Virus record (IMG/VR): IMGVR_UViG_2563366837_000008
Direction: 5' to 3' (one strand)
Length of the DNA stretch: 23,594 bases
From: a virus
Lineage: Duplodnaviria; Heunggongvirae; Uroviricota; Caudoviricetes
Shown one piece after another: positions 1 through 14,802 of this stretch. Made by a program: the position numbers and the translations under genes. The notes below the pieces were generated by a model. It was not told where the DNA came from and did not search any database. It was given only the letters and a program-made list of their open reading frames with translations. Position 1 is the stretch's first letter. Every line of letters starts with the position of its first letter.

Positions 1-468
1 TTATTTCAGGCACTGAGTACGGATATATTCCTGCGCCCCTTCCAGTTGCTTCTGCATCGTCATCAGCCGCTCTCTGAGGGTGAAATAATCCCGTGTAACG
101 GTGTCTGCCAGTTGGGGGCCGGTTGCATTATCCACGCGGGCGGTGCCGGTGGCTTCACGCACGGGACCTGGACAGGTGGCGTTGATACGCAGGCGCTTAC
201 GACCAGCGGCAACGTCAGCGCGAAGAGTTTCATTTTCAGCTTTCGCATCAGCTAACTCCTTCGTGTATTTTGCATCGAGCGCAGCAACATCACGCTGACG
301 CATCTGCATGTCAGTAATTGCCGCGTTCGCCAGCTTCAGTTCTCTGGCATTTTTGTCGCGCTGGGCTTTGTAGGTAATGGCGTTATCACGGTAATGATTC
401 AGCCCCAGACTAAGCGCACCACAGGCCACCAGCAGGGCAATGATGACCACGCACAGTACGCGGTTCAT
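1..468 (-). CDS. Rz: Rz i-spanin (inner-membrane spanin subunit), 155 aa
   Basis: N-terminal TM segment then charged coiled-coil-like region; sequence reads as a lambda Rz homolog ([44 protein letters not shown], recognised from memory); Rz1 is embedded in the +1 frame; last gene of a lysis cassette. Confidence 0.85.
63..248 (-). CDS. Rz1: Rz1 o-spanin, outer-membrane lipoprotein, 61 aa, embedded within Rz
   Basis: Signal peptide with lipobox (LVVSAC), proline-rich mature part ([22 protein letters not shown]); entirely nested in Rz in another frame, as in lambda Rz/Rz1. Confidence 0.8.
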
Positions 469-469
469 T

Positions 470-568
470 TCACCACCAGCGTATCTGACCGATGAAATAA
501 CCGGAGGCCATAATCACAAACACCAGCCAGATAAGAATGAACTTCCAGGTGGATAATTTTTCAGCCAT
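470..568 (-). CDS. Small hydrophobic ORF, 32 aa ([32 protein letters not shown]), hypothetical single-TM peptide between endolysin and Rz
   Basis: Hand-translated; GGGAGA Shine-Dalgarno about 9 nt upstream of the ATG; its stop lies 1 nt from the Rz ATG; below the 60-aa cutoff of the ORF track. Uncertain. Confidence 0.3.
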
Positions 569-643
569 CACTCGAATCTCCCGAATCAGTTTGCTAAAAT
601 CAAACACACTTTCTCCTTTGACTTTTCCGGAGTCAGGAAACAC

Positions 644-677
644 AAAACCCCGCTTGGTGCCAACAAACGGGGTTTTT
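644..677. terminator. GC-rich hairpin flanked by an A-run and a T-run (AAAACCCCG...CGGGGTTTTT), bidirectional terminator-like element between endolysin and Rz
   Basis: Inverted repeat CCCCG/CGGGG with flanking AAAA and TTTTT seen directly in the sequence. Confidence 0.4.
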
Positions 678-766
678 ACTTTTATTCACTTACGTTTCGC
701 CAGTTCGCAGGATTTCGTGTTATCCGCCCGCGTGGCCATACCTTATTTTTCAGCAAAATATTCTGC

Positions 767-1300
767 TTATCTGTCGATTCCCCAGCACGCCAGCGCGCTC
801 TCCTGGTCACGACGGGATACCTGACCGTAGCAGTTGTTTGAACGAATACGGCAGTCTCTGCCACCGTCCTTAATCCACCAGCGAATCGCCTCACACGCTC
901 CCCTGCGATCACCTGCATTAATTCGTTTATAAAACGTCGACGGGAAACACTTACCGGGACCAATGTTGTACGGACAGAATGACGCGATCCCCGCTTTCTG
1001 GGGTTCACTCAATGGCACTCTGATGTTTTTCTCCACCCATGCCAGCGCCTTATCACGCTCAATGGCGTTAACCCGGTCGCATTTTTCCTTCGACAACTTC
1101 ATGCCCGGAACGACAGGTTTGCCATCCACCAGGATGGCACCGCGGCAGATGGTCCAGATACCCGCACCATCACGGTATGCCGTGGTGTGGTTACCTTCCT
1201 TTTCATCCAGAAACTGGTCGAGAATGTCAGGCGCAGGCGCACCAGCGGCAATCAGCGCCAGAACGGCAGCCGACAGGCCGTATCTGATTTTTGCGTTCAT
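767..1300 (-). CDS. R: SAR endolysin (phage lysozyme, GH24/T4-lysozyme-like), 177 aa
   Basis: N-terminal signal-anchor-release segment (LSAAVLALIAAGAPAP); catalytic E-x8-D-x5-T pattern (EGNHTTAYRDGAGIWTICRG); reads as the RrrQ/RrrD/P21-R family from memory. Confidence 0.85.
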   Translation of the reverse strand: MNAKIRYGLSAAVLALIAAGAPAPDILDQFLDEKEGNHTTAYRDGAGIWTICRGAILVDGKPVVPGMKLSKEKCDRVNAIERDKALAWVEKNIRVPLSEPQKAGIASFCPYNIGPGKCFPSTFYKRINAGDRRGACEAIRWWIKDGGRDCRIRSNNCYGQVSRRDQESALACWGIDR

Positions 1301-1405
1301 GGATATTTATCAGGATTTATCGGTTTCTGAGCCCTGGATATGTTTATCAGTTCCAGCCTGTTGCCTCAGGCTGCTAACAGGTCAATACAATCATGAGGAT
1401 TATTT

Positions 1406-1678
1406 ATGGACAATAACACCATTTCTCTACAGGAGTTGCTCGACAGCATTTCCAGGCTTCGGGAAGACGTGAATACCCTTACCGTCGCCTTCTCATATCT
1501 GGCATTCTCAATTCCAAGGGAACAGATGCAATCAACGCTGGCATCAATCCAGTTTGAATCATGCAATCCCAAATGGTCTCAGGAACAACAAGACTCTTTC
1601 AGGCGGCTTGCTGTATTACTGGATGAAAAATATGCTGGTAAAATTACCATTTCGGCGGACTCTTCAGAGAACCCGTAA
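1406..1678 (+). CDS. Hypothetical protein, 90 aa, opposite orientation inside the lysis cassette
   Basis: ORF with GAGG Shine-Dalgarno 8 nt upstream of the ATG; occupies an otherwise gene-free 340-bp gap; its 3' end overlaps the DUF1327 gene by 35 bp; no recognisable domain. Confidence 0.35.
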   Translation: MDNNTISLQELLDSISRLREDVNTLTVAFSYLAFSIPREQMQSTLASIQFESCNPKWSQEQQDSFRRLAVLLDEKYAGKITISADSSENP

Positions 1679-1988
1679 TTATTCCCGGTAGTTTTCCTCT
1701 GTAGGTTATCAACACATCCTGCGCCTCTAAAATTACGGGGCGCTTTTCCGGCGACTGCTCATCCCCTTCACATAACCCGGCAGCAACATCCAGGAAGACC
1801 TGTCTGATGCTCCTTCTGGCTGCTGCCTCATAAAACTCCAGCGCGGCACCTTCAACACGGTCCAGCGAGATGTCCAGGTCAAAAATTTCACCGTCAAAGC
1901 GTTTTTTGTCCCGTAACGCTAAAGTTACCGTAACTTTATTCTCAAAATTGCGGATCCCTTTCACAATCAGTTCATAGTTTTGAGTCAT
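1644..1988 (-). CDS. ydfR: DUF1327 / YdfR-like prophage protein, 114 aa
   Basis: Position between holin and endolysin as in the Qin prophage; N-terminus MTQNYELIVKGIRNFENKVTVT resembles YdfR from memory; GGAGA RBS. Confidence 0.55.
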   Translation of the reverse strand: MTQNYELIVKGIRNFENKVTVTLALRDKKRFDGEIFDLDISLDRVEGAALEFYEAAARRSIRQVFLDVAAGLCEGDEQSPEKRPVILEAQDVLITYRGKLPGIITGSLKSPPKW

Positions 1989-1992
1989 TGAA

Positions 1993-2208
1993 TTACTCTC
2001 CCCGTGCAGCCTTACGACGGTCCTCTCTGATTTTGAAATACAGGTTAGTCAGATATGTCAGCAGCCCAAACAGCAGACTCCCCAGCACGCCTATTGCCGC
2101 CCACTGAGACGGGGAAACCCTGTCCAGCAACTGCAGGAACCAGTAGCCCGTTCCCACCGCTGACGTGGTGTATGACACACCTGTTGTGATTTTTTCCATC
2201 TGGTACAT
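1993..2208 (-). CDS. S: Class II holin, phage-21 S21-type pinholin, 71 aa with dual-start motif (Met1 and Met4)
   Basis: [71 protein letters not shown]; two TM segments and a charged C-terminus; GGGAGA RBS; partner of a SAR endolysin. The track ORF (1993..2262) adds 18 aa upstream that I do not consider translated. Confidence 0.8.
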
Positions 2209-2279
2209 ACCCCGTCTCCCGTTATCCGGAAGCTGACAACAATAAAAAATATCCTCCGGCATAGCCGGAGGTTTTTCAA

Positions 2280-2990
2280 ATGCGCCTATAAGGCTCTCTT
2301 ACCAGCCGCGCCCTAACAGGCGCACACGATCTGACATTTGCATCCAACTTCGTTACTTACGGCCCGTAAACGGGCTGCCCGGATAGGGAATCGATAACTG
2401 CTCTCCCATTTTATCCTCTTCAAGCTGGTGCTTTATGTAATCCTGTATCTTCGCCGTGTTCTTACCCACCGTATCGACGTAGTACCCTCTGCACCAGAAC
2501 TCCCTGTTCCTGTATTTGAATTTCAAATCACCAAACTGCTCGTAAAGCATCAGACTGCTTTTCCCTTTCAGATATCCCATAAAGCCGGATACGCTCATTT
2601 TGGGCGGGATCTCCACAAGCATATGGATATGATCTGCACAGCATTCAGCTTCCAGAATCCGTACACTTTTCCACTCACACAGCTTTCTCAAAATACTGCC
2701 TATTGCTCTACGCTTCTCTCTGTAGAACACCTGTCTTCGGTATTTTGGCGCAAAAACTATGTGATATTTACAGTTCCATCGGGTGTGCGCTAAGCTCTTT
2801 TCGTTCCCCATTGGGACCCCCTTTTGATTTCTTGTTTGACACTTGCAGTTGCCAGACCGCAAGGTGTTTTAACAAATCAAAAGGGGTTTTAATAACTGGC
2901 TTAAAGCTGAAAGCTTTCCGGAACCCCCAGCCTAGCTGGGGGTTTTCTGTGCACAAAAAAAGCCACCAGTTAAGTACTGATGGCTCTGAT
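2280..2990 (-). mobile_element. IS200-family insertion sequence (IS200/IS605 group), about 0.7 kb; boundaries approximate
   Basis: Contains a 152-aa IS200-type TnpA; perfect hairpin ACCCCCAGC-CTA-GCTGGGGGT followed by TTTT at 2923..2946 upstream of tnpA, the characteristic IS200 left-end structure. Exact ends not determinable by eye. Confidence 0.6.
2353..2811 (-). CDS. tnpA: IS200 transposase TnpA (HUH/Y1 single-strand transposase), 152 aa
   Basis: MGNEKSLAHTRWNCKYHIVFAPKYRRQ... with the HUH motif (HIHMLVEIPP) and catalytic Tyr region; the track ORF starts 17 codons upstream at an alternative start. Confidence 0.9.
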   Translation of the reverse strand: MGNEKSLAHTRWNCKYHIVFAPKYRRQVFYREKRRAIGSILRKLCEWKSVRILEAECCADHIHMLVEIPPKMSVSGFMGYLKGKSSLMLYEQFGDLKFKYRNREFWCRGYYVDTVGKNTAKIQDYIKHQLEEDKMGEQLSIPYPGSPFTGRK

Positions 2991-3069
2991 AACTCATGCA
3001 GGCATCTCAGACGACCCACTGACACTACCGGTGAGTTTAACGATACCTTCCATTTGGCTGGCTCACTTT

Positions 3070-4923
3070 TTATGATGATGCCGGTGCATTTATCTCCAGC
3101 ACCAGACTTTCTATCTCAACGCCATACGCTGCATTTTTGGTAATATCCGTCAGCGTCAGCGCATTCAGCCCCAGTGTCAGACTGTCTTTTATGACCTGGA
3201 ATGCCGGGCCAGCCACTCCATTCAGTTTCGGAGTAACCGTGGCACTGCCGGCGGTGAACACCAGCTCCAGCGTCTGCCAGTCGTTACTGTAATTCCCGAA
3301 CTCGCCCAACTTTGTGTTTCCTGCTTTCTTGTGATGCATCAGATTCAGTTTGCCGTCTGTGGTCTGGGTGAAGAACGACATCAGGAACGGGTTACCAGTC
3401 CCGGTCATCGCCACGACGTCAGGTAACGCTACATCGGTATACAGATAAATTCCCAGACCGAACTGGTTGTTGGTCAGTGCGCCTGACAGTCGAAACTTAC
3501 AGCTCAGTCTGCCACCCCGTGTCAGCAGGGAGACTGCGTCATCCACCGGGCGCGTCAGGGACCAGGCTTTATTGCTCTGCTTGGTGATCTTAAATACACC
3601 ATCTGACAACTGAATTCCGCCATTCTTAATGCTCCAGCCCTGCGCAGCAGCGTCTCCGGCTGTCGGCAACAGGGAGATTGTGCGTATGGATGCATCTTCA
3701 GACGGCCCCGATGGCGTGTCGCCGCCGGGCGAGGCTTTGATTTCCGGTGCCTTACCACTAATGAAGGCTAAGGTGCGACCGGCTACGTTCAGAATAGCCG
3801 TTGCCATACGATCGGGAATAATGCCACGACGCGCCCATGAGCTGAAATGCGTCGGGCGATTTGATGATACCCAGTTTTTGTTCGTTCGGGATGCCGAACC
3901 GTAATAACCAGACCCGGCAATATCAGGATCTTCTGACGGGTTGTTTGTCGGTGTATTAACTCCGCTACCATCGGTCATAAAGGGAACAAAATAAATCTGC
4001 TGGGATTCTTTACCTTTATATGCACCATATACCACTTCATATTGCGTACCGTGTTCTTGTTTCCACGCGTATGTCGTGTCGCCACAAATCCAGGGGACTG
4101 ATGCCGGACTTCCACCGTGACACTGCGCCGCCAGCCCGGCAAGGTCAGCACGGAACTGCTGTACCATTGCAAGAAATGCTGCTGGCTGCTGGGCGTAACT
4201 GGCATTCGTCATATCGAATTCCCCCTGCATCCAGCATATCGCCAGCAAAACGTTTTTCGGGTTTTTCTGCAATGCTGCCTTCGTGCGGAAAAGCAGATCC
4301 TGATATAACGGCTTACCCACTCCCCAGCGAGCCGAATCCTGACTGGCTCCCGTGGACTCGCTGAATGTCCCCTCCGTGCCCTGGGTGAATGCCGAACCAC
4401 CACGACAGCATGGTACCAGCAGGATCCCCGCATTATTAGGGATATACGGAAGCAGTTTTTTGGCAATATGTAAGCCCTGTCCGACACAGCCGTACTGCCC
4501 TTTGCTCAGGTCAGCCCGGGGATGGTTAATCGTACTCATATCCTGAACATCATGCAGACAATGGTCAGCAGGAATGATGTCGTTAAATACGCATACTTCA
4601 CCACCGGGAGTCACTGTGTTACGACGGGCCAGTTGCTTAATGCGCGGATGGGGCGCATCGTATGAATCCGGAAGCGGAAGCCCTTCACCGTAAGCCATGG
4701 CATTGGATTGCCCGGCCAGTACGATGACGTAGTACCACTCCGGCTCAGTTGCACCACTGACGACCACATCACCTTCTGCTGCAATCGCCTGCATCAGGGT
4801 ATAAGGGGTTATGGCCACCGGACTACCAAACGGCTGCCAGCCCTCCTTCAGTTTTTGTGTCAGTCGTTTCGCAAGGTCTGACGGCGATGCCGCCCTGACC
4901 ACGTCATAGTGTTTAAATGCCAT
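3070..4923 (-). CDS. nanS: NanS-p-like prophage sialate O-acetylesterase (DUF1737 + SASA/SGNH hydrolase + C-terminal domain), 617 aa
   Basis: N-terminus MAFKHYDVVRAASPSDLAKRL...; SGNH-type nucleophile motif LAGQSNAMAYGEG; size and architecture match the esterase encoded just downstream of stx in Stx prophages (from memory). Confidence 0.8.
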   Translation of the reverse strand: MAFKHYDVVRAASPSDLAKRLTQKLKEGWQPFGSPVAITPYTLMQAIAAEGDVVVSGATEPEWYYVIVLAGQSNAMAYGEGLPLPDSYDAPHPRIKQLARRNTVTPGGEVCVFNDIIPADHCLHDVQDMSTINHPRADLSKGQYGCVGQGLHIAKKLLPYIPNNAGILLVPCCRGGSAFTQGTEGTFSESTGASQDSARWGVGKPLYQDLLFRTKAALQKNPKNVLLAICWMQGEFDMTNASYAQQPAAFLAMVQQFRADLAGLAAQCHGGSPASVPWICGDTTYAWKQEHGTQYEVVYGAYKGKESQQIYFVPFMTDGSGVNTPTNNPSEDPDIAGSGYYGSASRTNKNWVSSNRPTHFSSWARRGIIPDRMATAILNVAGRTLAFISGKAPEIKASPGGDTPSGPSEDASIRTISLLPTAGDAAAQGWSIKNGGIQLSDGVFKITKQSNKAWSLTRPVDDAVSLLTRGGRLSCKFRLSGALTNNQFGLGIYLYTDVALPDVVAMTGTGNPFLMSFFTQTTDGKLNLMHHKKAGNTKLGEFGNYSNDWQTLELVFTAGSATVTPKLNGVAGPAFQVIKDSLTLGLNALTLTDITKNAAYGVEIESLVLEINAPASS

Positions 4924-5113
4924 GAATCCTCCCGGGCGGGATAATGTTGTGAGTCAGATAAGGAGCAGGCTGAAGTCCGGAAGTTACAGGACAATGGCAG
5001 AAGGGAGACTACAGCCCGCAATTCGAAAAAGACCGCGCAGTTGCGCAGAGTGATTACTATGGGGTATTATTCGCCAGCTGAAATATTACTTCACGTTTTA
5101 TTGTTTATTCCTT

Positions 5114-5145
5114 GCCGCCCGCGTCTCCCAGCGCGGGCTTTTTTT
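5114..5145 (+). terminator. Rho-independent terminator on the + strand (GCCCGCG-loop-CGCGGGC followed by TTTTTTT)
   Basis: Perfect 7-bp GC stem and a 7-T run seen directly; no + strand gene upstream is apparent. Confidence 0.5.
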
Positions 5146-5149
5146 GTCC

Positions 5150-5176
5150 ATAAGAAAGCCCCTCCGGAGAGGGGCT
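5150..5176 (-). terminator. Rho-independent terminator on the - strand (AGCCCCTC-CGGA-GAGGGGCT followed on the - strand by TTTCTT); 3' end of repeat unit A
   Basis: 8-bp GC stem plus U-rich tract on the - strand; an identical hairpin recurs at 5644..5663 (unit B). Confidence 0.45.
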
Positions 5177-5395
5177 AAAGCCGCGTATCTGTATCATCAT
5201 GCACATGGTGCCGGGTGCCTCCCGGTGAGTTCAGCCCGGTGCCACTAAACCCGCGTCATTCTCGTTTTGATAATCAGAGATTATACCGTCACCAGTCGCC
5301 CCTCCGCTCAGGGGGATTCACCATGCGAAATTTTTTTAACAAATGCCCAGTCTGACAGGCAACTGTCAACTTACTGAATTGTGAGCAACATAGCA
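5153..5395. repeat. Non-coding direct repeat unit A, about 240 bp
   Basis: Shares with unit B these conserved blocks: AAAGCCCCTCCGGAGAGGGGCT, GCATGGTGCCGGGTGCCTCCCGGTGA, GCCCCTCCGC(T/A)CAGGGGGATTCACCATGC, TTTTAACAAA, CTGAATTGTGAG. Conservation is at hairpin/nucleotide level and falls in different reading frames in the two copies. Confidence 0.6.
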
Positions 5396-5421
5396 TTTAA
5401 CGGGGAACCTGTTTTCTGCAG

Positions 5422-5455
5422 TAAAAAGGCCCACCGGAGCGGATGGGCCTGGAAG
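5422..5455 (-). terminator. Terminator-like hairpin on the - strand (AGGCCCA...TGGGCCT followed by TTTTT) between the two repeat units
   Basis: Inverted repeat plus T-run (A-run on +) seen in the sequence. Confidence 0.4.
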
Positions 5456-5637
5456 GATAGCGGTCATGTGATGCCGGTTTCCCGGTAACTCAGCACCGGT
5501 ATCTGAGTCAACGTTTTCTCTACTGGGTCATTTCCGATACGCCCTGCCTGCTGACAGGCTTTCATCACATCTGAAAATATAGCACCCTGACTGATACTGT
5601 AGTACCTAAGGTTCCAGAAACTGTGATGTATCCGGCA

Positions 5638-5865
5638 CAGAAAAGCCCCTCCGGAGAGGGGCTGGAGAGTGGCGCTATGTGCCATTGCATGGTGCCGGGT
5701 GCCTCCCGGTGAATTCAGTACCAGCACCTGAATCCGCGATTATCCCATATACCTACTCGCTGATTGCCCCTCCGCACAGGGGGATTCACCATGCCAGTTT
5801 CTTTTAACAAACTCCCCGCAAACCAGACAACAGTCAACCGCCTGAATTGTGAGACATTTAAAAAA
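5638..5865. repeat. Non-coding direct repeat unit B (paralog of unit A), ending on the - strand in the same GC hairpin plus U-tract (5644..5663)
   Basis: See unit A; roughly 65-70 % identity overall by eye, with near-identical hairpin cores. Confidence 0.6.
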
Positions 5866-5897
5866 AGCCCGCAAAAGCGAGCCAGGGAAAATAAGTG

Positions 5898-5974
5898 TGG
5901 CGCGTTGTACTGGATTCGAACCAGTGACCGATTGCTTAGAAGGCAATTGCTCTGTCCGGCTGAGCTAACAACGC
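5898..5974 (-). tRNA. tRNA-Arg (anticodon UCU), 77 nt
   Basis: Hand-folded cloverleaf: acceptor GCGTTGT/ACAACGC, D stem GCTC/GAGC, anticodon stem ATTGC/GCAAT with loop CTTCTAA, T arm ACTGG-TTCGAAT-CCAGT, discriminator G plus CCA. Confidence 0.8.
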
Positions 5975-5987
5975 AGGATACAGATAA

Positions 5988-6064
5988 TGGACCGCCTTCG
6001 GGGACCCGAACTCCGCGCAACCAGCTTCGAAGGCTGGCGCTCTATCCTGATGAGCTAATGGCGG
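5988..6064 (-). tRNA. tRNA-Arg-like (anticodon UCG), 77 nt, with non-canonical features
   Basis: Anticodon stem CCAGC/GCTGG with loop CTTCGAA and D arm GCTC...GAGC are clean, but my fold has one acceptor-stem mismatch, one T-stem mismatch and T-loop TTCGGGT (G at position 58). Could be functional or degenerate. Confidence 0.5.
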
Positions 6065-6071
6065 TATGTGA

Positions 6072-6147
6072 TGGTGGCCCTTGCTGGATTTGAACCAGCG
6101 ACCTGGCGATTATGAGTCGCTCGCTCTCACCACTGAGCTAAAGGGCC
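6072..6147 (-). tRNA. ileZ: tRNA-Ile2 (anticodon CAU, lysidine-type; reads AUA), 76 nt
   Basis: Near-identical to E. coli ileX by memory (GGCCCTTTAGCTCAGTGGTGAGAGCGAGCGACTCATAATCGCCAGGTCGCTGGTTCAAATCCAGCAAGGGCCACCA); first tRNA downstream of Q, as ileZ is in Stx phages. Confidence 0.8.
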
Positions 6148-6187
6148 GGGAGCCGCATAATAACGACGCGTAATTAATTCTTCAATA

Positions 6188-6595
6188 TCATCCGTTCTGG
6201 CTGACTAAATCCTGTACTTCCCGAACCGTCTGCTCAAAACGTTCAGTCTCCAGCTCAACGCCAATTGCACGACGCCCGAGCGCCAGTGCCGCTTTCACTG
6301 TCGAACCCGACCCCATGAAAAAATCTGCAATCAGGTCACCCGGACGACTGCTAGCGCTGATTATCTGCTGCAGCATTTCTGCCGGTTTTTCGCACGGATG
6401 TTTCCCGGGATAGAACTGCACCGGTTTATGCGTCCAGACATCGGTATACGGCACCTGCGCCGTCACGCCAAAATACCGCCGCAGTCGGCATTCACAACCA
6501 CCAGCGCATTTAACGTTCAGGCACAAAAAAAACCGCTCATCGGCGGGTTTAAGCTGTGTGACGAAGTAACTACTCTTAACAGCATAACCAATTTT
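6188..6595 (-). pseudogene. C-terminal remnant of an N6/N4 DNA methyltransferase (PF01555-like); N-terminal catalytic half missing
   Basis: Contains the AdoMet-binding end (HPCEKPAEMLQQIISASSRPGDLIADFFMGSGSTVKAALALGRRAIGVELE) but no upstream DPPY/DPPW block; the frame is open only about 23 codons upstream of the track start, then hits a stop and AT-rich DNA. Confidence 0.6.
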
Positions 6596-6599
6596 TTAC

Positions 6600-6976
6600 G
6601 TACGTAAACTACTAAATGATATTTGTGAGAATGCCACCGAGTGTTCAAAACACCACCACAAATACATAAGAAAACTTCAACAAATAACCAATAAATAATT
6701 TCGGATGTTATTTTTAGTTTGTTTAAATTAAGCTAAAGAATTATAGACTACTTATAAATAAGTGCCATTAATATAAATTAGCTAATAGATTTATTTTTGT
6801 TCAAACAAGAGCCATGAATAGGATTAGATAGAAAAGGTTCAGATAAAAATAGAGATCTACTTCACAAATTAAATGAGAAACTAAAACTTACATCTTGAAA
6901 TAATCACATTGATTAGATGAATATTTATCGCGCAGTGACATCATTTTTTTATAATAGTTCAAAAAAAGGGCGTACA
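6600..6976 (+). promoter_or_regulatory. Strongly AT-rich upstream region of the porin gene (promoter/regulatory region of a horizontally acquired moron)
   Basis: About 380 bp of markedly AT-rich DNA immediately 5' of the porin start, sharply different from flanking composition; no promoter elements assigned. Confidence 0.3.
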
Positions 6977-8059
6977 ATGAAAAAATTAACAGTGGCAATT
7001 TCTGCTGTAGCTGCATCAGTACTGATGGCGATGTCTGCTCAGGCAGCTGAAATTTATAATAAAGACAGTAACAAGCTGGATCTATACGGGAAAGTTAATG
7101 CCAAGCACTACTTCTCCTCTAATGATGCAGATGATGGTGATACTACTTATGCCCGTCTTGGCTTCAAAGGTGAAACCCAAATCAACGATCAACTGACTGG
7201 GTTCGGTCAGTGGGAATATGACTTCAAAGGCAACCGTGCTGAATCTCAAGGTTCTTCCAAAGACAAAACCCGTCTTGCATTTGCAGGCCTGAAATTTGGT
7301 GATTACGGCTCAATCGATTACGGCCGTAACTTCGGTGTAGCATACGACATCGGTGCGTGGACTGACGTCCTGCCAGAATTCGGTGGTGACACTTGGACTC
7401 AAACCGACGTGTTCATGACTCAACGTGCAACTGGTGTTGCAACTTATCGTAACAACGACTTCTTTGGTCTGGTCGATGGCCTGAACTTTGCTGCTCAGTA
7501 TCAGGGTAAAAATGACCGCACTGACGTAGCTGAAGCCAATGGTGATGGTTTCGGTTTCTCCACTACTTATGAGTATGAAGGATTCGGCGTGGGTGCAACC
7601 TATGCTAAATCAGATCGCACTGACGGTCAGGTCGCCTATGGTAAGAGCAAATTCAATGCCTCCGGCAAAAATGCGGAAGTATGGGCTGCAGGCCTGAAAT
7701 ATGATGCGAACAATATCTATCTGGCTACCACATATTCTGAAACTCAGAATATGACCGTTTTTGGTAATAACCATATTGCAAACAAAGCACAAAACTTTGA
7801 AGCAGTAGCACAATATCAGTTTGACTTCGGTCTGCGCCCATCTGTTGCTTACCTTCAGTCAAAAGGTAAAGACCTTGGTGTTCATGGTGACCGAGACTTA
7901 GTCAAGTATGTCGATGTCGGTGCTACTTACTACTTTAATAAAAACATGTCCACTTTTGTTGATTACAAAATCAACTTAATTGACGATAGTAAGTTTACCA
8001 AAACAGCTGGTATTGATACCGACGACATCGTCGCTGTAGGTCTGGTTTATCAGTTCTAA
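6977..8059 (+). CDS. nmpC: Prophage-encoded general porin of the OmpC/OmpF/PhoE family (NmpC/Lc-like), 360 aa with signal peptide
   Basis: [23 protein letters not shown] signal peptide then [16 protein letters not shown]... and C-terminal ...VAVGLVYQF; AGGG RBS 8 nt upstream. The track ORF starts 20 codons earlier (6917), which I reject. Opposite orientation just downstream of Q, as nmpC in DLP12. Confidence 0.85.
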
Positions 8060-8076
8060 TCTGACTTACGAAAAAG

Positions 8077-8110
8077 ATATGTTGCGGGAGGCTTTGCCTC
8101 CGCAACATAT
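8077..8110 (-). terminator. tR'-like intrinsic terminator on the - strand (15-bp imperfect hairpin followed on the - strand by CTTTTT)
   Basis: ATATGTTGCGGGAGGC-TTT-GCCTCCGCAACATAT with a T-run at about 8071..8076 on the - strand; lies about 170 nt downstream of the Q stop, analogous to lambda tR' ending the short 6S leader. Confidence 0.45.
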
Positions 8111-8195
8111 AAGTGGAGCCCTCAAGCCACTTCCTTTAGAAGCACTACCTTGCTTCTTACTATATAAACCTTCTGTTATATATTACCCTTTATTT

Positions 8196-8220
8196 GGGGG
8201 CGTTTCCACGCCCCATTTTT
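8196..8220 (+). terminator. Rho-independent terminator on the + strand (GGGGCGT-TTCC-ACGCCCC followed by ATTTTT), downstream of the porin gene
   Basis: Perfect 7-bp stem plus T-run seen directly. Confidence 0.5.
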
Positions 8221-8246
8221 AATAACTTTTAGTAAACAATTGCATA

Positions 8247-8630
8247 TCAATTAGAATTATTAGCAACGATATCCATATCTAACCGGATATCTAATGCCAT
8301 TAACATCCCTTCAATTATGCCCTCAGCCTTCTGTAACCTTTTCCCGATATAACCATCCGAGCAGCAATGCTTACTTGCCAGTGACATGAATGTCATACCA
8401 CATACATAATAATCTACTAATAAATCGTGTAAATCGCTGTTGTTCTTTTTCAGACGGGCCATGCACCCGCAAATGATCATCGCGTCATCGTCACAACATT
8501 GCGGGCGAGATTTTACTTTTGAAGGAATTAATCCCTTAAAACCGGCAGCAATGGACGACCAGGTCACATCCTCATGATTATTTGCCGCCCATGCTCCCCA
8601 GCGTTCGAGAACCATCTGAATATCACGCAT
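8247..8630 (-). CDS. Q: Late-gene antiterminator Q (small PF06530-type, QuuD/QuuQ-like), 127 aa
   Basis: [35 protein letters not shown]...[16 protein letters not shown]; the track ORF starts at an upstream TTG (8645), the ATG at 8630 is the likely start; followed by a terminator-bounded leader, then late genes. Confidence 0.75.
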
Positions 8631-8647
8631 CAACTTTCTCCACAAAA

Positions 8648-9643
8648 TCAGGACAGCACACCAATCGCCAGCGCGCGATCGATAAAACGAAATATCAGCT
8701 CCAGTTGGGAACCATACTTCTCTTCAAATGCCACGGTATCCGCATGCAGTCCGTCATGGTGTTTTCTGCACAAAGGCAACACAAAAAGGTCATGCGCTTT
8801 TGTACCCATTCCACCCTAACCATGACCAATCAGGTGATGAGGATCGTCGGCTGGCTTACCACAACATGCACACGGCTGCGTCTTAACCCAGCGCGTGTAC
8901 TTTTCATTAACCCAGCGACGACGTTTGGGGCGTAACATAAAAGACTCCGGCGACTCCGGATCCACTTTCAGCGCCAGCACCTTTTTCGCCTTATCCCGGA
9001 TGATGCTGGTGGCAGGAACCGAAGGCACAAGGTCACTTTCCCGGGTGACAGACGGCACAACAGGCTTCGGTAATCTCAGTGCCTTACGGGCTGCACTTTC
9101 CGGTAAGGCATCCGCCAGGTCATTACGAACCAGCCACCAGCACAGTTCCGGCATTGTCACAACGTGGCTGTCATCAAAACCGAGATCACGACGGACTACG
9201 GACAACACCCAGCGGGCACAGTTATCCGTTGCCATTGATTCCAGACGTTCCGTGAACTGATCGCGAAGCAGGTTATCGCAGTGCCAGCACAGACGGATTG
9301 CGCCCGGCGCGTGTCGCATTGTGGTCATGTTCTCGCTGTGCCATCCGGAATGAGGCCACTGGCAGCCTTTTTCACGAAGTAACCAGCTCTCAAGGCATTC
9401 CACGCCACCAGCACGACGGATCACCGCCTCATGGCGGAACACGGCCCGAACGGCAGGATCATCCGCCAGCGGTTGTGATGCTGCCGGAACGGCACCACTG
9501 GCAAAAGATGAATAACGTTCCGGCTCAGGCTCCAGCAGGACACGCCCCTGCATAAACAGGGGCATCAGCTCTGAACCGGGTCTGAACAAGACGATCCCCA
9601 TACGCGGGGCAATTTCAGGGGTCAGCAGTGCTCTCACGGTCAC
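8648..9643 (-). pseudogene. DUF968 (YdfU-like) prophage protein interrupted by an in-frame TAG at 8816..8818
   Basis: The track ORF ends ...CCGKPADDPHHLIGHG at TAG; the same frame continues for 55 codons ([55 protein letters not shown]) to a TGA at 8648..8650, just before Q. Hand-translated. Confidence 0.65.
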
Positions 9644-9689
9644 CTCAGCGAACGGTATTGCATGAACGCAGGAGAAAAAAATTCAGCCA

Positions 9690-9947
9690 TCACGCAGTAA
9701 ACTCCTTCACCAGCGTTTCAAACTGGCTTACCTGTCCTTCCAGTTCCGCCACGCAATCCACCAGCTCATCCACCGCCTTTTGTGTGCGGTGTTTTGCCTG
9801 CAGCAGATCACGAAGCGCCGGAGTAAGCTGCTTGCGGAGCGTATCTTTTTTCACGCTCGTTTTTTCCATCTGTTCAGCACAACGAAGCATCTCCTGCGCC
9901 TGCCGACGAAGTTGTTCCGGTGAAACAGTGATTGTTCTGTTGTTCAA
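9690..9947 (-). CDS. Hypothetical protein, 85 aa, predicted coiled-coil, between helicase and DUF968
   Basis: 4-bp start/stop overlap with the upstream helicase gene (translational coupling); no recognisable domain. Confidence 0.5.
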   Translation of the reverse strand: MNNRTITVSPEQLRRQAQEMLRCAEQMEKTSVKKDTLRKQLTPALRDLLQAKHRTQKAVDELVDCVAELEGQVSQFETLVKEFTA

Positions 9948-11344
9948 AATAAACGCTCCGTTTTACTGCCCGACATGCGGTTATTGCTGTATCTGCGCGG
10001 ATTGCCCGGCGTCATGGGTGTGGAAAGAACCCGGGCACTCTCCTGGTCCACAGGCAGAAAATGTCCGTTATGAAAACGCCGGTAAATGGTCCCGAGTGTG
10101 CCATTACGCTGTTTCGTGATGTTGATTTCTGCTATGCCTCTGGCCTGTGTATCCGGGTTATACACCTCATCCCTGTAAAGCATCAGAATGATGTCGGCAT
10201 CAGCCTCTATTTCCCCGGAGTTTTTCAGGTCTGAGTTCATGGGACGTTTATTGGGTCTGGATTCCACGCCTCGGGAGAGCTGGCTCAGAGCAATCAGCGG
10301 GAAACCGCCGGATTTTGCCAGGCTTTTAAGTCCCTTTGAGATTTCCCCCACAGCAAGGTCGTGACGCCCCGTGCTGCGGGTTTTAATCAGACCGAGGTAA
10401 TCGACCACCACCAGCGCCGTTTCCGGGTGTTTCATCCGGTGGTGCTTCGTGGTTGCACATATCTCATCAATGGTCAGGTTTGCCTGATCCACCATCCAGA
10501 TATTACGCCCCGTCATTCGTCCCACGCCCTGCGAGAAACGCGCCCAGTCTTCATCTTCAAAACGGGCAACAGACTTAAGACGGGATACCGGCATTCCACC
10601 GGCAGCAGACACCATACGTTCACCAATCTGGATGTTCGCCATCTCCATGGTGAACAGAAGCACGCCATGCCCCTGCTCAGTCACCTTGTCGATGATGTCC
10701 AGCGCAAGTTCGGTTTTCCCCATCGAAGGACGGGCGGCAATGAATACCAGGTCACCGGGCTCCATACCGCCCGTTTTTGCGTCCAGTTCATCAATACCGG
10801 TCATCAGCGCCCTGGATTTCTCCAGTCCCTGATTGCGGCATTCAACACGGTCGACCACTTCCGGAAGGACATCATCAATGTGAACCGGCTGAATGACGCC
10901 CTTTCCGGTCGACAGTGAGGCCATCATGTTCTGCACATCCTTCAGGGCATCCTCGGCTGCTTCACAGGTATACGCATCACGTAAATTCTGTAATGCTTCA
11001 GTCAGTGTTTTTTCTGCATCGCGCAGTGCGGCATTGCGCCGCAACGCTGCGACATAGTGCTCCAGTGAAGACTTCACCCAGGTTTTGCGTCCGGTGTCGG
11101 TAATCACCGGGGCAAGTTCCGGCATCTCATTGCACAGCAGTACGGGGTCAATGACGCCGGATATGCGAGCCTGTCTGCAAATCCCCGCGTAAATATCCCG
11201 GTACTGACGCACAAAAAATACATCCGCCGGAAGTGTGGCCAGAATATCCATCACTTCCGGATCGGCCCCACGCAGAAAAAACGCACCGATGACAGCGCCT
11301 TCCAGGTCATCGTTACGCCATGCCGGGGTGTTCTGGCTGGTCAT
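9944..11344 (-). CDS. Replicative DNA helicase, DnaB family, 466 aa
   Basis: Walker A AARPSMGKTELALD, Walker B-like LVVVDYLGLI, and DnaB-like N-terminal domain; 4-bp overlap with the upstream loader gene. Confidence 0.85.
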   Translation of the reverse strand: MTSQNTPAWRNDDLEGAVIGAFFLRGADPEVMDILATLPADVFFVRQYRDIYAGICRQARISGVIDPVLLCNEMPELAPVITDTGRKTWVKSSLEHYVAALRRNAALRDAEKTLTEALQNLRDAYTCEAAEDALKDVQNMMASLSTGKGVIQPVHIDDVLPEVVDRVECRNQGLEKSRALMTGIDELDAKTGGMEPGDLVFIAARPSMGKTELALDIIDKVTEQGHGVLLFTMEMANIQIGERMVSAAGGMPVSRLKSVARFEDEDWARFSQGVGRMTGRNIWMVDQANLTIDEICATTKHHRMKHPETALVVVDYLGLIKTRSTGRHDLAVGEISKGLKSLAKSGGFPLIALSQLSRGVESRPNKRPMNSDLKNSGEIEADADIILMLYRDEVYNPDTQARGIAEINITKQRNGTLGTIYRRFHNGHFLPVDQESARVLSTPMTPGNPRRYSNNRMSGSKTERLF

Positions 11345-12249
11345 GCGGCAACACCTCCGATACGAGAACGGTAGCTGGGCCAGTTAAACGACAACCAGTT
11401 GCGCCCGCCATCGGTGATCCTGTCGGCAATCCGGGGACTGATGAACGCCCACAATTCTTCCGGTGAAAGGTTGCTGATCAGGATAGTTGGCAAAATACCC
11501 TCATACCGGGCATTGATAATTTCCTGCAAAATGGCCATTTCAGCCGCACTGCCAAACTGAACGCCGACTTCGTCGACAATCAGCAAATCCAGTGACGCAT
11601 AATGCTCAATGACGTCATCCGCTGTTTTTTCACTGTCATTCCGCCAGCAGTTTTTCACAGCCCGGGTAAGGCGCATCACGTCGGTGATCTCCACACTGGC
11701 CAGATAGTTACGGATGATGTGTTTTGCCATTGATACCGCCAGATGATTTTTCCCGGTACCGCAACTGCCGGTCATAACAAGACTGGTACCGTTCTCCAGC
11801 ATATCTGGCCAGTTCTCCGCATAGCGGCGACAGGCCGCAAGATTTCTGGCTGCGTCAGGATTAACCTCCAGATAATTATCAAACTCGCAGTCCCGAAAAC
11901 GCAGAGCAATTCCGGCGTTATCAGTCAGTTCTTCCGCCTTGAGGGACGACAGTTCCATGGTCAAATCACTGGCCTCAGCGATCAAGCAGTCAGGGCAGCA
12001 TGAAATTTTTTCTCTGTCCTCGCCATTACGATCGATCCACACCAGTATATGCGTACGATATTTACCGTGTTTTTCGCAATATCCGCGACCTTCACGCATC
12101 AGGCAGGAACGATAAGGCCATGGCTTTTCGCCCTTCTGAGCAAATGCAATCTCTGCCCGTAACTCATCCATTTCTGCCCGTAACTCATCCATTCGCGCCT
12201 GTAGTCTTGTTTGTTTCTCACGTTGGTCAATCGTCATCATCGCTGTCAC
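11341..12249 (-). CDS. DnaC/IstB-like AAA+ helicase loader, 302 aa
   Basis: Walker A GSCGTGKNHLA, Walker B LLIVDEVG; N-terminal coiled-coil and Cys-rich region; contains a 21-bp in-frame tandem duplication (MDELRAE x2). Confidence 0.85.
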   Translation of the reverse strand: MTAMMTIDQREKQTRLQARMDELRAEMDELRAEIAFAQKGEKPWPYRSCLMREGRGYCEKHGKYRTHILVWIDRNGEDREKISCCPDCLIAEASDLTMELSSLKAEELTDNAGIALRFRDCEFDNYLEVNPDAARNLAACRRYAENWPDMLENGTSLVMTGSCGTGKNHLAVSMAKHIIRNYLASVEITDVMRLTRAVKNCWRNDSEKTADDVIEHYASLDLLIVDEVGVQFGSAAEMAILQEIINARYEGILPTILISNLSPEELWAFISPRIADRITDGGRNWLSFNWPSYRSRIGGVAA

Positions 12250-12250
12250 C

Positions 12251-13243
12251 TCAGAATGTCAATTTGTTACTGGATTTACCGAATTTGTCAGACATGGCTC
12301 CCAGGCCAGCCAGGACATCGACCTGTCGCTGTCGCCCACCTCCGTGAGCGGCTGGCTGTTGCCAGTAATCTTCGAAGTGACGATCGGGTCCAAAGAACGT
12401 CGCAGCCTGCTTCACGAACTGTGTGCCGGTATTTCCTGTAGCACGTACCCAGGCGGCATACCGCTTCACGCCATCAAGCATGGTCTCCGGTTTTATTCCC
12501 TCCCTGATACGGGCTTTCCAGGCTTTGAAGGCTGCTGACTTGGAATTGCCACCAGCACGTTTGGGATATTCCTGCCAGGCCTGTTCAAATTCCGATGAAT
12601 ATTCCTGTCGGGCAGAACGCGCTGGCGCAGACGCGTCAGCGGATGCATCAATAGTGTTTTTAGTCTCCGTTGTAATCTCTGTAGTAATCTCTGTATTTGT
12701 ATCAACATTCGGCGTATCCCCTGTTCCGTTATGACGTCGGGGGGTGTTCCGTTTTAACGTAATAGCTGTATCGCTGATTGCATTATTGCTGTTACTTTCT
12801 GGCGAAACAGAAGAAGGTGTGGTGATGGCCGCAATTGCCTGTGGGTTGATCCCGACAAACAAAATATTGCTGCATTTCACCCCATCGAGCATTTCCACCG
12901 TGCGTAAATCCAGAGTAATAAACCCTGCATCGCGCAGACGCTTCAGCGCATCTGCGGTTTCCCTTTTCCCGAAACCAAACTGCTCAGCAAACGCCTGGTA
13001 GCTTCTTTGCAGTTTGTCGCCCTGAAAACGCTTGCGATATCCCAGCAACGCTCCGGTGTGCTCATCCCTGACCTCTGTCGGGCGGTACCAGTAAACGATC
13101 TCTGAAAGCAGAGCGATAGCCGTCGCATCCGGACGCCCACTGGGTAGTCGAATATATTTCCACCAGTTCGCAGGTGTAACATTGCCGGAAATATTAATTT
13201 GACCAATAGCCATAACTTCCGGTGTGGGGGCGTAACGGCTCAT
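12251..13243 (-). CDS. Replication initiation protein, YdaU/DUF1376-like, 330 aa
   Basis: Position directly upstream of the loader and helicase; C-terminal region EFEQAWQEYPKRAGGNSKSAAFKAWKARI resembles DUF1376 from memory; iteron-like repeats inside the gene. Confidence 0.65.
   Translation of the reverse strand: MSRYAPTPEVMAIGQINISGNVTPANWWKYIRLPSGRPDATAIALLSEIVYWYRPTEVRDEHTGALLGYRKRFQGDKLQRSYQAFAEQFGFGKRETADALKRLRDAGFITLDLRTVEMLDGVKCSNILFVGINPQAIAAITTPSSVSPESNSNNAISDTAITLKRNTPRRHNGTGDTPNVDTNTEITTEITTETKNTIDASADASAPARSARQEYSSEFEQAWQEYPKRAGGNSKSAAFKAWKARIREGIKPETMLDGVKRYAAWVRATGNTGTQFVKQAATFFGPDRHFEDYWQQPAAHGGGRQRQVDVLAGLGAMSDKFGKSSNKLTF
12660..12700. repeat. Iteron-like short direct repeats inside the initiator gene (2 perfect 12-bp copies GTAATCTCTGTA plus degenerate flanking copies); candidate ori
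   Basis: Tandem GTAATCTCTGTA at 12672..12683 and 12684..12695, flanked by similar GTCTCCGTTG and TTTGTATCAAC; encodes TEITTEITTE in the protein. Confidence 0.3.
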
Positions 13244-13760: not shown

Positions 13761-13951
13761 GGACGCACCTCCACCGTAGTTACGTATTTAACCGGGCTAC
13801 CTTTCATTGAGATGGTTTCACACATCTCTGCCGCTTTCAGTTCCGCTGTTTTTCTGGATTTATAGCGACGGTGCCAGACAGATACATCCGTGCGAACTGA
13901 TACATCGTTTCTGTATTCCGTAGTGGAGATGATGATTTCGTAACTAATCAT
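13757..13951 (-). CDS. Hypothetical protein, 64 aa
   Basis: ORF with 4-bp overlaps with the upstream Rha gene and the downstream gene. Confidence 0.5.
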   Translation of the reverse strand: MISYEIIISTTEYRNDVSVRTDVSVWHRRYKSRKTAELKAAEMCETISMKGSPVKYVTTVEVRP

Positions 13952-14802
13952 GGGCGAACCTCCTTGTCAGAACCATTCAGCCTGGAATCAACAAGTGCAG
14001 CGCCAAAAACAGCATCACCAACACGGTCGTACAGTTTGCTAGCCAGCGGAGATTCAACGGCCTTAAGCATTGGATAAAGCTGGCTTGTCCAGATTTGATG
14101 GATTTCACGCAAATGCAGGTATACGCCTCTGGCGTTTCGTGCGACAGCTGACATATCAGACGCATCGGCACCTGATAAACTCTTCTCCATCAGGTTAAAG
14201 GCGTTGATGTATGCCTCTTTGAACCGGGCAGCACGTTTACCAGTGAAGCCCATGGCAAGGAACGCGAAGCCATCGCGGGTGATTTGATAGCAAGGTAGTT
14301 TGCGGCCTGATGCGTCGGTGTATTCACTTAACACAAAATTGTGTTCAGTAAATTCAGCGGAACATTCGAGGTTTCTAATTCTATCTAAAACCCGCTCATG
14401 CCGTTTAGTAAAGTAATTAGCTACTGCAAGAGATGTGGTGACAACGCGACCATTGATAATCGTGATTTCAGGGTGAGATTGGGTTGGGAGAGTAGTCATG
14501 GTGACAGCCCCTATGTTGAATTCAATGAACTCACCACCAAGGCTTTCCACGACCATATAGGTGGTGAGACGTACAGGGGTGGAAATACCGGTCAACATAG
14601 AACCCGGCCCAACCGAAGTTGGCCCTGCACGCCCCACCATAATTTGGGCGTAACGATGCTCATGACACGAAAAAACCGCATGAGCGCGGTTGTGCTCTAT
14701 ATTGAATTTCGGGTTTCCACGCCCGGCACCCGCTTTATAAGGTGCCTGAGCAGTGTAACGTCCCGGAATTGCAGAATCAATATTTGGTCTTGAAATGATC
14801 AT
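13948..14802 (-). CDS. Phage regulatory protein Rha family (Phage_pRha domain in the C-terminal half); start uncertain, 284 aa from 14802 or 183 aa from 14499
   Basis: Rha-like block VVTTSLAVANYFTKRHERVLDRIRNL...YTDASGRKLPCYQITRDGFAFLAMGFTGKRAARFKEAYINAFNLME; the internal ATG at 14499 has a strong AGGGG RBS, the ATG at 14802 has none. Confidence 0.7.
   Translation of the reverse strand: MIISRPNIDSAIPGRYTAQAPYKAGAGRGNPKFNIEHNRAHAVFSCHEHRYAQIMVGRAGPTSVGPGSMLTGISTPVRLTTYMVVESLGGEFIEFNIGAVTMTTLPTQSHPEITIINGRVVTTSLAVANYFTKRHERVLDRIRNLECSAEFTEHNFVLSEYTDASGRKLPCYQITRDGFAFLAMGFTGKRAARFKEAYINAFNLMEKSLSGADASDMSAVARNARGVYLHLREIHQIWTSQLYPMLKAVESPLASKLYDRVGDAVFGAALVDSRLNGSDKEVRP

Follow-up and report, generated by a model that had tools for sequence, protein, structure and literature searches.

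Insertion sequences (IS) of the IS200/IS605 family excise precisely and reseal the donor, and work on IS608 of Helicobacter pylori and ISDra2 of Deinococcus has led to the view that transposition in this family proceeds through single-stranded DNA. IS200 of Salmonella enterica and IS200C of Escherichia coli carry a single gene, tnpA, for a 152-aa Y1 transposase with Tyr125, lack terminal inverted repeats, and combine a left-end terminator hairpin, a stem-loop in the 5' untranslated region (5'UTR) that hides the Shine-Dalgarno sequence, the art200/STnc490 region and a right-end hairpin. Passages of PMC5435999 and PMC4513863, both citing Beuzon 1999, describe the left-end inverted repeat of IS200 (nt 12-34) as a strong, bidirectional terminator of the Rho-independent type, at which about 85% of impinging transcripts end, and the same papers report that strong repression of tnpA translation is exerted by the 5'UTR stem-loop, by art200 and by Hfq. 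Here we describe a copy of IS200C that shares the structural features named above and lies between nanS-p and the holin gene S in the late operon of a lambdoid E. coli prophage, recorded as the Caudoviricetes sequence IMGVR_UViG_2563366837_000008 (23,594 nt, referred to below as the window). The explanation that we favor, with a probability of roughly 0.7, is a recent and simple insertion of an intact IS200C, placed by its own target preference and having a small effect on lysis.

Comparison with the empty site of otherwise matching prophages delimits an intact element of 711 bp on the minus strand, against a quoted length of 707 bp for Salmonella IS200 (PMC4513863). Its tnpA reading frame matches the Pfam profile Y1_Tnp (PF01797) with E=3.8e-38 over 119 of 121 profile positions, and the translation is identical both to RefSeq WP_000526135.1 and to the protein of the copies in CFT073 and Z1323CEC0015. 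The Tyr125 that it retains is the residue exchanged in Y125F, the catalytically dead TnpA mutant of PMC4513863. At the DNA level the element differs from four other copies, annotated as IS200C in RefSeq, at 2-6 positions per 711 nt (99.2-99.7% identity). No other substantial open reading frame (ORF) with a family match lies within the insertion and there is no tnpB, a point on which IS200C departs from IS608 and ISDra2. The two ends (GTGCAC... and ...ATATTTTTT) show no terminal inverted repeats, and the left and right subterminal hairpins are unrelated in sequence. The Rfam family STnc490 (RF01405), which models the IS200 left end and 5'UTR, is matched over its full length (positions 1-124) at 2821-2944 on the minus strand, with 146.1 bits against a gathering threshold of 56.

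The element therefore has every testable defining feature of the IS200 group of the IS200/IS605 family, and the initial annotation, which had called an IS200-family element in the late operon, between nanS-p and the holin, was right in both respects. The element is co-directional with the late genes. It is of an already known kind, and it is common for the late regions of prophages to contain IS elements. With its ends and TnpA intact, and with presence and absence of the element both represented among near-identical prophages, this copy is probably still mobile; its transposition through single-stranded DNA ("peel and paste") is assumed by homology. The RF01405 match lies on the tnpA-sense strand, beginning at the left-end hairpin and stopping at the Shine-Dalgarno sequence. 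As art200 (formerly STnc490) has been published as an antisense RNA to the tnpA 5'UTR (PMC4513863), the family seems to identify the locus of the small RNA (sRNA) without indicating its strand; the sRNA would here be encoded opposite the structured region at 2818-2886.

The initial annotation had placed the element at 2280-2990. The length of that interval is correct, but its position is off by 36 bp: alignment to an isogenic IS-free prophage and to Stx2 phage 86 puts the element at 2244-2954. As first drawn, the interval misses the right-end hairpin (2253-2271) and covers a phage terminator hairpin (2962-2984). By the empty-site alignment the hairpin at 2253-2271 is part of the IS and that at 2962-2984 part of the phage, which rules out that both are phage terminators or that both are IS ends. 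The late-strand sequence of the empty site is ...GCCATCAGTACTTAACTGGTGGC-TTTTTTT^ATTGTTGTCAGC..., the caret marking the point of insertion, so that GGC-T7^ATTGTTG has become GGC-T7, 711 bp of IS200C and then ATTG, without a target duplication. Because the junctions fall in an A/T run, the placing of each end is uncertain by up to 6 nt. We followed the convention set by other IS200C copies, in which the left end begins GTGCACAG... and the right end closes ...GGAGGATATTTATT. A 6-bp target duplication, with TTTTTT on both sides, was considered and dropped, since nine other IS200C sites keep TTTATT at the right end whatever their left flank.

This copy departs from that pattern in one respect. It closes in TTTTTT, with T in place of the A that other IS200C copies have at IS nt 709, the third base from the right end, and two IMG/VR contigs with an identical right flank carry the canonical TTTATT. 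The substitution lengthens the U-run behind the right-end hairpin, and the run ends 35 nt before the holin ATG. A terminator scan of the late strand picks out the right-end hairpin, with ATATTTTTTA behind it, as terminator-like. The variant nucleotide corresponds to the position (-3) that also varies in the TTNTT target described below.

The landing site of the element is the native intrinsic terminator of the phage downstream of nanS-p, a 12-bp stem with a T7 run (-17.0 kcal/mol, z = -3.97), to the last T of which the IS left end is joined. This terminator is unchanged in the IS-free phage 86, NMBU_W05E18 and vB_EcoS-783R2. We collected IS200C left flanks by an exact-pattern scan, keeping one genome per species, which gave 46 loci; addition of E. 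coli and phage loci brought the set to 48 distinct left flanks from E. coli, Kluyvera, Phytobacter, Citrobacter, Entomohabitans and Kosakonia. All 48 consist of a GC-rich hairpin followed by a T-run, with T at -5, -4, -2 and -1 in every case, and T, A, C or G at -3 in 33, 11, 3 and 1 flanks, respectively. A simple hairpin-plus-T-run test was passed by 46 of the 48, compared with 33 of 3000 random positions. When 33 IMG/VR loci were added, giving 65 distinct flanks, 61 passed, compared with 486 of 3000 random TTNTT sites. One of the 65 ends in TGATT, and the TTNTT pentamer found in all the others is therefore not absolute.

This comparison across flanks shows a preference of IS200C for the 3' end of Rho-independent terminators, which explains where the insertion lies with no need for phage-specific logic. 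The right end, TT(A/T)TT, resembles the TTNTT target, in keeping with a rule of the family by which cleavage at the right end occurs at a target-like sequence, and the co-directionality of tnpA with the terminated gene follows from the strand specificity of that target. IS608 and ISDra2 share with IS200C the Y1 HUH transposase, the subterminal hairpins, the strand-specific joining of the left end directly 3' of a short target without duplication, and a right end that resembles the target. They differ in recognizing TTAC or TTGAT, the IS200C target being a T-rich pentanucleotide that is almost always the U-tract of an intrinsic terminator. A further analogy is provided by class C group II introns, which also home just after intrinsic terminators and so occupy intergenic "safe" sites co-directional with the upstream gene. 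These are retroelements with a ribozyme and a reverse transcriptase, however, and have neither sequence nor mechanism in common with IS200C. The terminator preference itself has already been noted statistically in the literature: a 2026 survey found an excess of terminator-like sequences upstream of ISs, which was most pronounced for IS200/IS605 (PMC13548323).

The age of the insertion can be judged from two complete E. coli genomes, NMBU_W05E18 and U1, which carry the same prophage without the IS and match window positions 3000-12000 at 100%. By BLAST, window 1-2249 corresponds to positions 10713-12961 of the NMBU_W05E18 locus with one substitution, and window 2955-23594 to positions 12956-33594 with one 1-nt indel at window 13655. 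Over some 22.9 kb, then, the two differ by 1 substitution and 1 indel, in addition to exactly 711 extra bases in the window. The indel is a 1-nt insertion in the window relative to NMBU_W05E18, within a small gene that RefSeq calls frameshifted there (23537-23760 of that locus), and the window may hold the intact allele. Stx2 phage 86 has the same empty site as NMBU_W05E18, as have vB_EcoS-783R2 and U1, and the empty state is common across diverse backgrounds. Conversely, no place covering at least 80% of a query built on the left junction of the window was found in 5,426 complete E. coli genomes, and the exact 32-nt junction was absent from Joint Genome Institute (JGI) metagenome contigs and from IMG/VR; this location before the holin of this prophage was not found in the other collections searched. 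Among the same 5,426 genomes, only four records, from three strains, have an IS200C right end joined to a holin flank. The insertion is therefore rare and, in view of the nearly identical IS-free relatives, recent; it was a simple event, and the close match of its flanks to the IS-free prophage shows that no decay came after it. The pseudogenes of the window, a truncated methylase and a DUF968 gene with an internal stop, are common to the IS-free twin and so predate IS200C.

IS200C recurs in other phages, in lambdoid late operons and in delayed-early ones, because antiterminated operons hold terminators internally, and in every case it points in the same direction as each flanking gene identified. 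Several of these insertions lie in front of S. That of the O158:H23 Stx2j prophage has the right junction of the window (|ATTGT) and a different terminator on its left; the two insertions are 2 nt apart and may represent one event or two. E2348/69 and Z1323CEC0015 have one common insertion in front of S, and two IMG/VR contigs have an insertion there with exactly the right flank of the window. In the enteropathogenic E. coli (EPEC) strain E2348/69 (our locus L004, NC_011601.1, about 1,291,265-1,293,400) an IS4-family element, ISEc13, is nested in the left-end terminator hairpin of the IS200C, whereas Z1323CEC0015 has no ISEc13.

Further upstream, IS200C lies between Q and nanS-p in five contigs and about 450 nt upstream of S in another locus (L077), and in the IMG/VR locus L062, whose Q is identical to that of the window, it directly follows a terminator hairpin situated some 180 nt downstream of this gene. 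In the phages PhiR63_2 and Lambda_ev058 it occupies lambda tR2, between ren and ninB and thus upstream of Q, so that Lambda_ev058 carries the element in an N-dependent operon that must be read for Q to be expressed. The name of Lambda_ev058 matches the convention used for plaque-forming coliphages isolated from infant viromes (PMC6969025), which suggests that IS200C can be tolerated within a phage operon. A literature search on the origin of PhiR63_2 found nothing, and one for "ev058" returned unrelated papers only.

Late-gene expression in phages of this type depends on an RNA polymerase modified by Q and thereby terminator-resistant. Adhya et al. in 1974 and Forbes and Herskowitz in 1982 reportedly found that polarity caused by IS insertions and by terminators is suppressed by lambda N and Q. 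Where the IS is absent, the T-run of the native terminator is followed after only 35 nt by the ATG of S, and no promoter-like site that could drive the holin was found on the minus strand, either in this spacer or in the IS right end. S would accordingly be transcribed only by polymerase that reads through the terminator, with or without the IS. From Q to the point of insertion, the terminator scan identified five further terminator-like sites on the late strand. Upon induction, the Q-modified polymerase would thus already ignore the target terminator and several others in order to reach S, R and Rz, and it should likewise read through the hairpins at the left and right ends of the IS, in which case expression of the lysis genes would be at most modestly reduced. 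In the lysogen, the IS would only add terminators in front of the holin. The insertion is intergenic, leaving every ORF and the ribosome-binding region of S intact. From this arrangement we judge that the effect of IS200C on lysis is quite probably modest or negligible.

Several points weigh against such a mild effect. The left-end hairpin, which folding predicts to be intact in the window copy together with the 5'UTR stem-loop, is the structure reported in the above passages of PMC5435999 and PMC4513863 to stop most ordinary transcripts, and the T6 run created by the A-to-T change at nt 709 would increase the terminator-like character of the right-end hairpin, which lies shortly before S. Efficient though it is, antitermination is not complete, and two extra terminators together with some 460 nt of poorly translated RNA could cause a measurable delay in lysis. 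A functional Q and a functional late promoter are assumed for this prophage. Furthermore, the prophages of E2348/69, Z1323 and O158:H23, which have the IS at similar sites, may not be inducible, and the name Lambda_ev058 does not appear in the main text of PMC6969025, so that its tie to the plaque isolates is one of naming convention only.

The initial annotation had gone further, proposing that the element could reduce the expression of holin and endolysin and so contribute to domestication of the prophage. Its premise, that an IS200 hairpin terminates transcription, is documented for the left-end hairpin in the passages already cited. On this proposal the left-end terminator, the right-end hairpin with its U-run and the untranslated tnpA RNA would together stop much of late transcription before S, R and Rz, and lysis would be delayed or lost. 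The strong repression of tnpA translation would, in ordinary operons, invite Rho-dependent polarity, the terminator-like right end lies immediately before S, and the equivalent IS of E2348/69 has itself been hit by ISEc13, which suggests that the region can be dispensable there. We nevertheless consider polarity of this kind unlikely. Q-antiterminated transcription already passes a canonical terminator at the same position and five more upstream. IS-free and IS-bearing prophages are otherwise virtually identical, with no sign of relaxed selection, and Lambda_ev058, named as plaque isolates are, carries IS200C in the N-antiterminated operon through which Q is expressed. The site of insertion is also fully explained by target preference, with no need to invoke selection. 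Nothing found here supports reduced lysis gene expression and domestication; the idea is plausible only for ordinary RNA polymerase, and it is weakened rather than refuted. Insertions of IS629 or IS1203 in stx or Q regions, and of IS5 in nmpC of DLP12, likewise place an IS in a lambdoid prophage late region and have been discussed as a route of decay, but these disrupt coding or regulatory sequence, whereas IS200C here only adds terminator-like structures to an operon read by terminator-resistant polymerase.

The recurrence of IS200C in antiterminated operons could instead benefit the element. Its insulated tnpA would then be transcribed only on induction, when replicating phage DNA offers single strands of the kind through which the family transposes, and the IS would spread in viable phages to its own advantage and not to that of the host. 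Co-directional copies do recur in the Q- and N-dependent operons of many lambdoid prophages and of a phage named like plaque isolates, and antiterminated polymerase should ignore a left-end terminator that normally blocks impinging transcription. Co-directionality is automatic, however, given a strand-specific target, with no selection required, and of the thousands of IS200C copies in E. coli only a small minority are carried by phages, which makes such induction-coupled spread highly unlikely in our estimation. In a related and quite unlikely, though slightly broader, form, IS200C would be in effect a terminator-homing element that lands repeatedly and co-directionally in N- or Q-antiterminated operons, has its tnpA transcribed on induction and rides in viable virions, while in some lysogens, such as O158:H23 Stx2j, the extra terminators could partly uncouple upstream genes (toxin, nanS-p) from lysis. 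It is also conceivable that the IS-bearing state is ancestral and that NMBU_W05E18 and U1 lost the element by the seamless excision typical of the family, since occupied and empty states differ by exactly 711 bp. This we regard as extremely improbable: the empty site is the common state, found in phage 86, vB_EcoS-783R2, NMBU_W05E18 and U1, the exact left junction occurs nowhere else in the collections searched, and a passage of PMC4513863 describes the transposition frequency of IS200 as notoriously low. A recent insertion into the terminator downstream of nanS-p, directed by target preference and of small consequence for lysis, thus remains our preferred explanation.

Taken alone, the insertion is of little weight, being one more copy of a very common E. 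coli IS in a prophage intergenic spacer. Nonetheless, the window and its IS-free counterparts in NMBU_W05E18 and U1 form a natural near-isogenic pair for the study of Q read-through of IS200 terminators and of lysis timing. The survey also yields a sharp description of the IS200C target, a GC hairpin and a T-run ending in TTNTT with the left end placed on the last T, and identifies terminators within antiterminated phage operons (tR2, after Q and before S) as recurrent landing sites. These sites bear on prophage annotation and on whether a phage should be judged defective when its late operon contains an IS.

Table 1. Positions of IS200C, its substructures and the surrounding prophage features in the window.
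Feature	Position	Strand	Details
IS200C	2244..2954	-	Left end at 2954 (5'-GTGCACAGAAAACC...), right end at 2244 (...GGAGGATATTTTTT-3')
Left-end hairpin AACCCCCAGCTAGGCTGGGGGTT	2922..2944	-	Fold -18.7 kcal/mol, z = -3.4; STnc490 alignment positions 1-23; corresponds to the published bidirectional IS200 terminator (nt 12-34, Salmonella numbering)
tnpA 5'UTR structured region	2818..2886	-	Fold of 2815-2955(-): -55.4 kcal/mol, z = -5.05; RF01405, 146.1 bits; art200 antisense sRNA encoded on the opposite strand (PMC4513863)
tnpA	2353..2811	-	Intact 152-aa Y1 (HUH) transposase; PF01797; H61-I-H63 and Tyr125 present
Right-end subterminal hairpin CCTCCGGCTATGCCGGAGG	2253..2271	-	Precedes ATA and the terminal TTTTTT (2244-2249)
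Native phage intrinsic terminator, downstream of nanS-p	2955..2987	-	Stem-loop 2959-2987, T7 run 2955-2961; insertion target
Antiterminator Q (QuuD type)	8247..8645	-	PF06530, E=7.7e-54
OmpC-like porin gene	6917..8059	+	Convergent to Q; flanked by the methylase fragment
DNA methylase fragment	6188..6526	-	Truncated; N-terminus missing according to RefSeq
tRNA-Met(CAT)/Arg/Arg	5898..6147	-	tRNA cluster
sRNA STnc100, two full-length copies	5146-5355 and 5633-5823	-	165 and 136 bits; between tRNA cluster and nanS-p
nanS-p-type sialate O-acetylesterase	3070..4923	-	Pfam DUF1737, SASA, DUF6645; SASA family carbohydrate esterase in the NMBU_W05E18 locus (L053)
Holin S, class II (P21-type), 71 aa	1993..2208	-	PF04971, E=1.9e-32; RefSeq annotation of the identical gene in the NMBU_W05E18 locus (L053)
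DUF1327 gene	late region, listed between S and R	-	
Lysozyme R	767..1300	-	
Rz/Rz1	1..468	-	

The prophage is integrated next to yecN/cmoA, and its late region occupies the minus strand of window 1-9000. The gene content given in the initial annotation (Q, tRNAs, nanS-p, holin, endolysin and Rz/Rz1) was recovered as named. The holin has an M-Y-Q-M dual-start motif, and 35 nt separate the IS right end from its ATG. A bidirectional-looking hairpin (ATATGTTGCGGAGGCAAAGCCTCCCGCAACATAT followed by CTTTTT) lies downstream of Q at a distance of about 180 nt and is the same one that serves as the IS200C site in L062. The two STnc100 copies sit where Stx phages carry stx, and the window has no stx gene. 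The tRNA at 6072-6147 is called Met (anticodon CAT) by ARAGORN, and RefSeq calls the identical gene of NMBU_W05E18 a tRNA-Ile; the two calls would fit a lysidine-modified tRNA of the ileX/ileZ type, as in the tRNA clusters of Stx phages. Downstream of the replication genes, the DUF968 gene (8648-9643) is split into two ORFs (8648-8809 and 8816-9643), and RefSeq lists its counterpart in the IS-free twin as a pseudogene. Finally, an Rfam match to C4 antisense RNA (82 bits) lies beside one to isrK (62 bits) at 14557-14745 on the minus strand, within or upstream of a gene for a Rha-family regulator (13948-14802), and the pair resembles a P1/P7-like antisense immunity module in the lambdoid early region.

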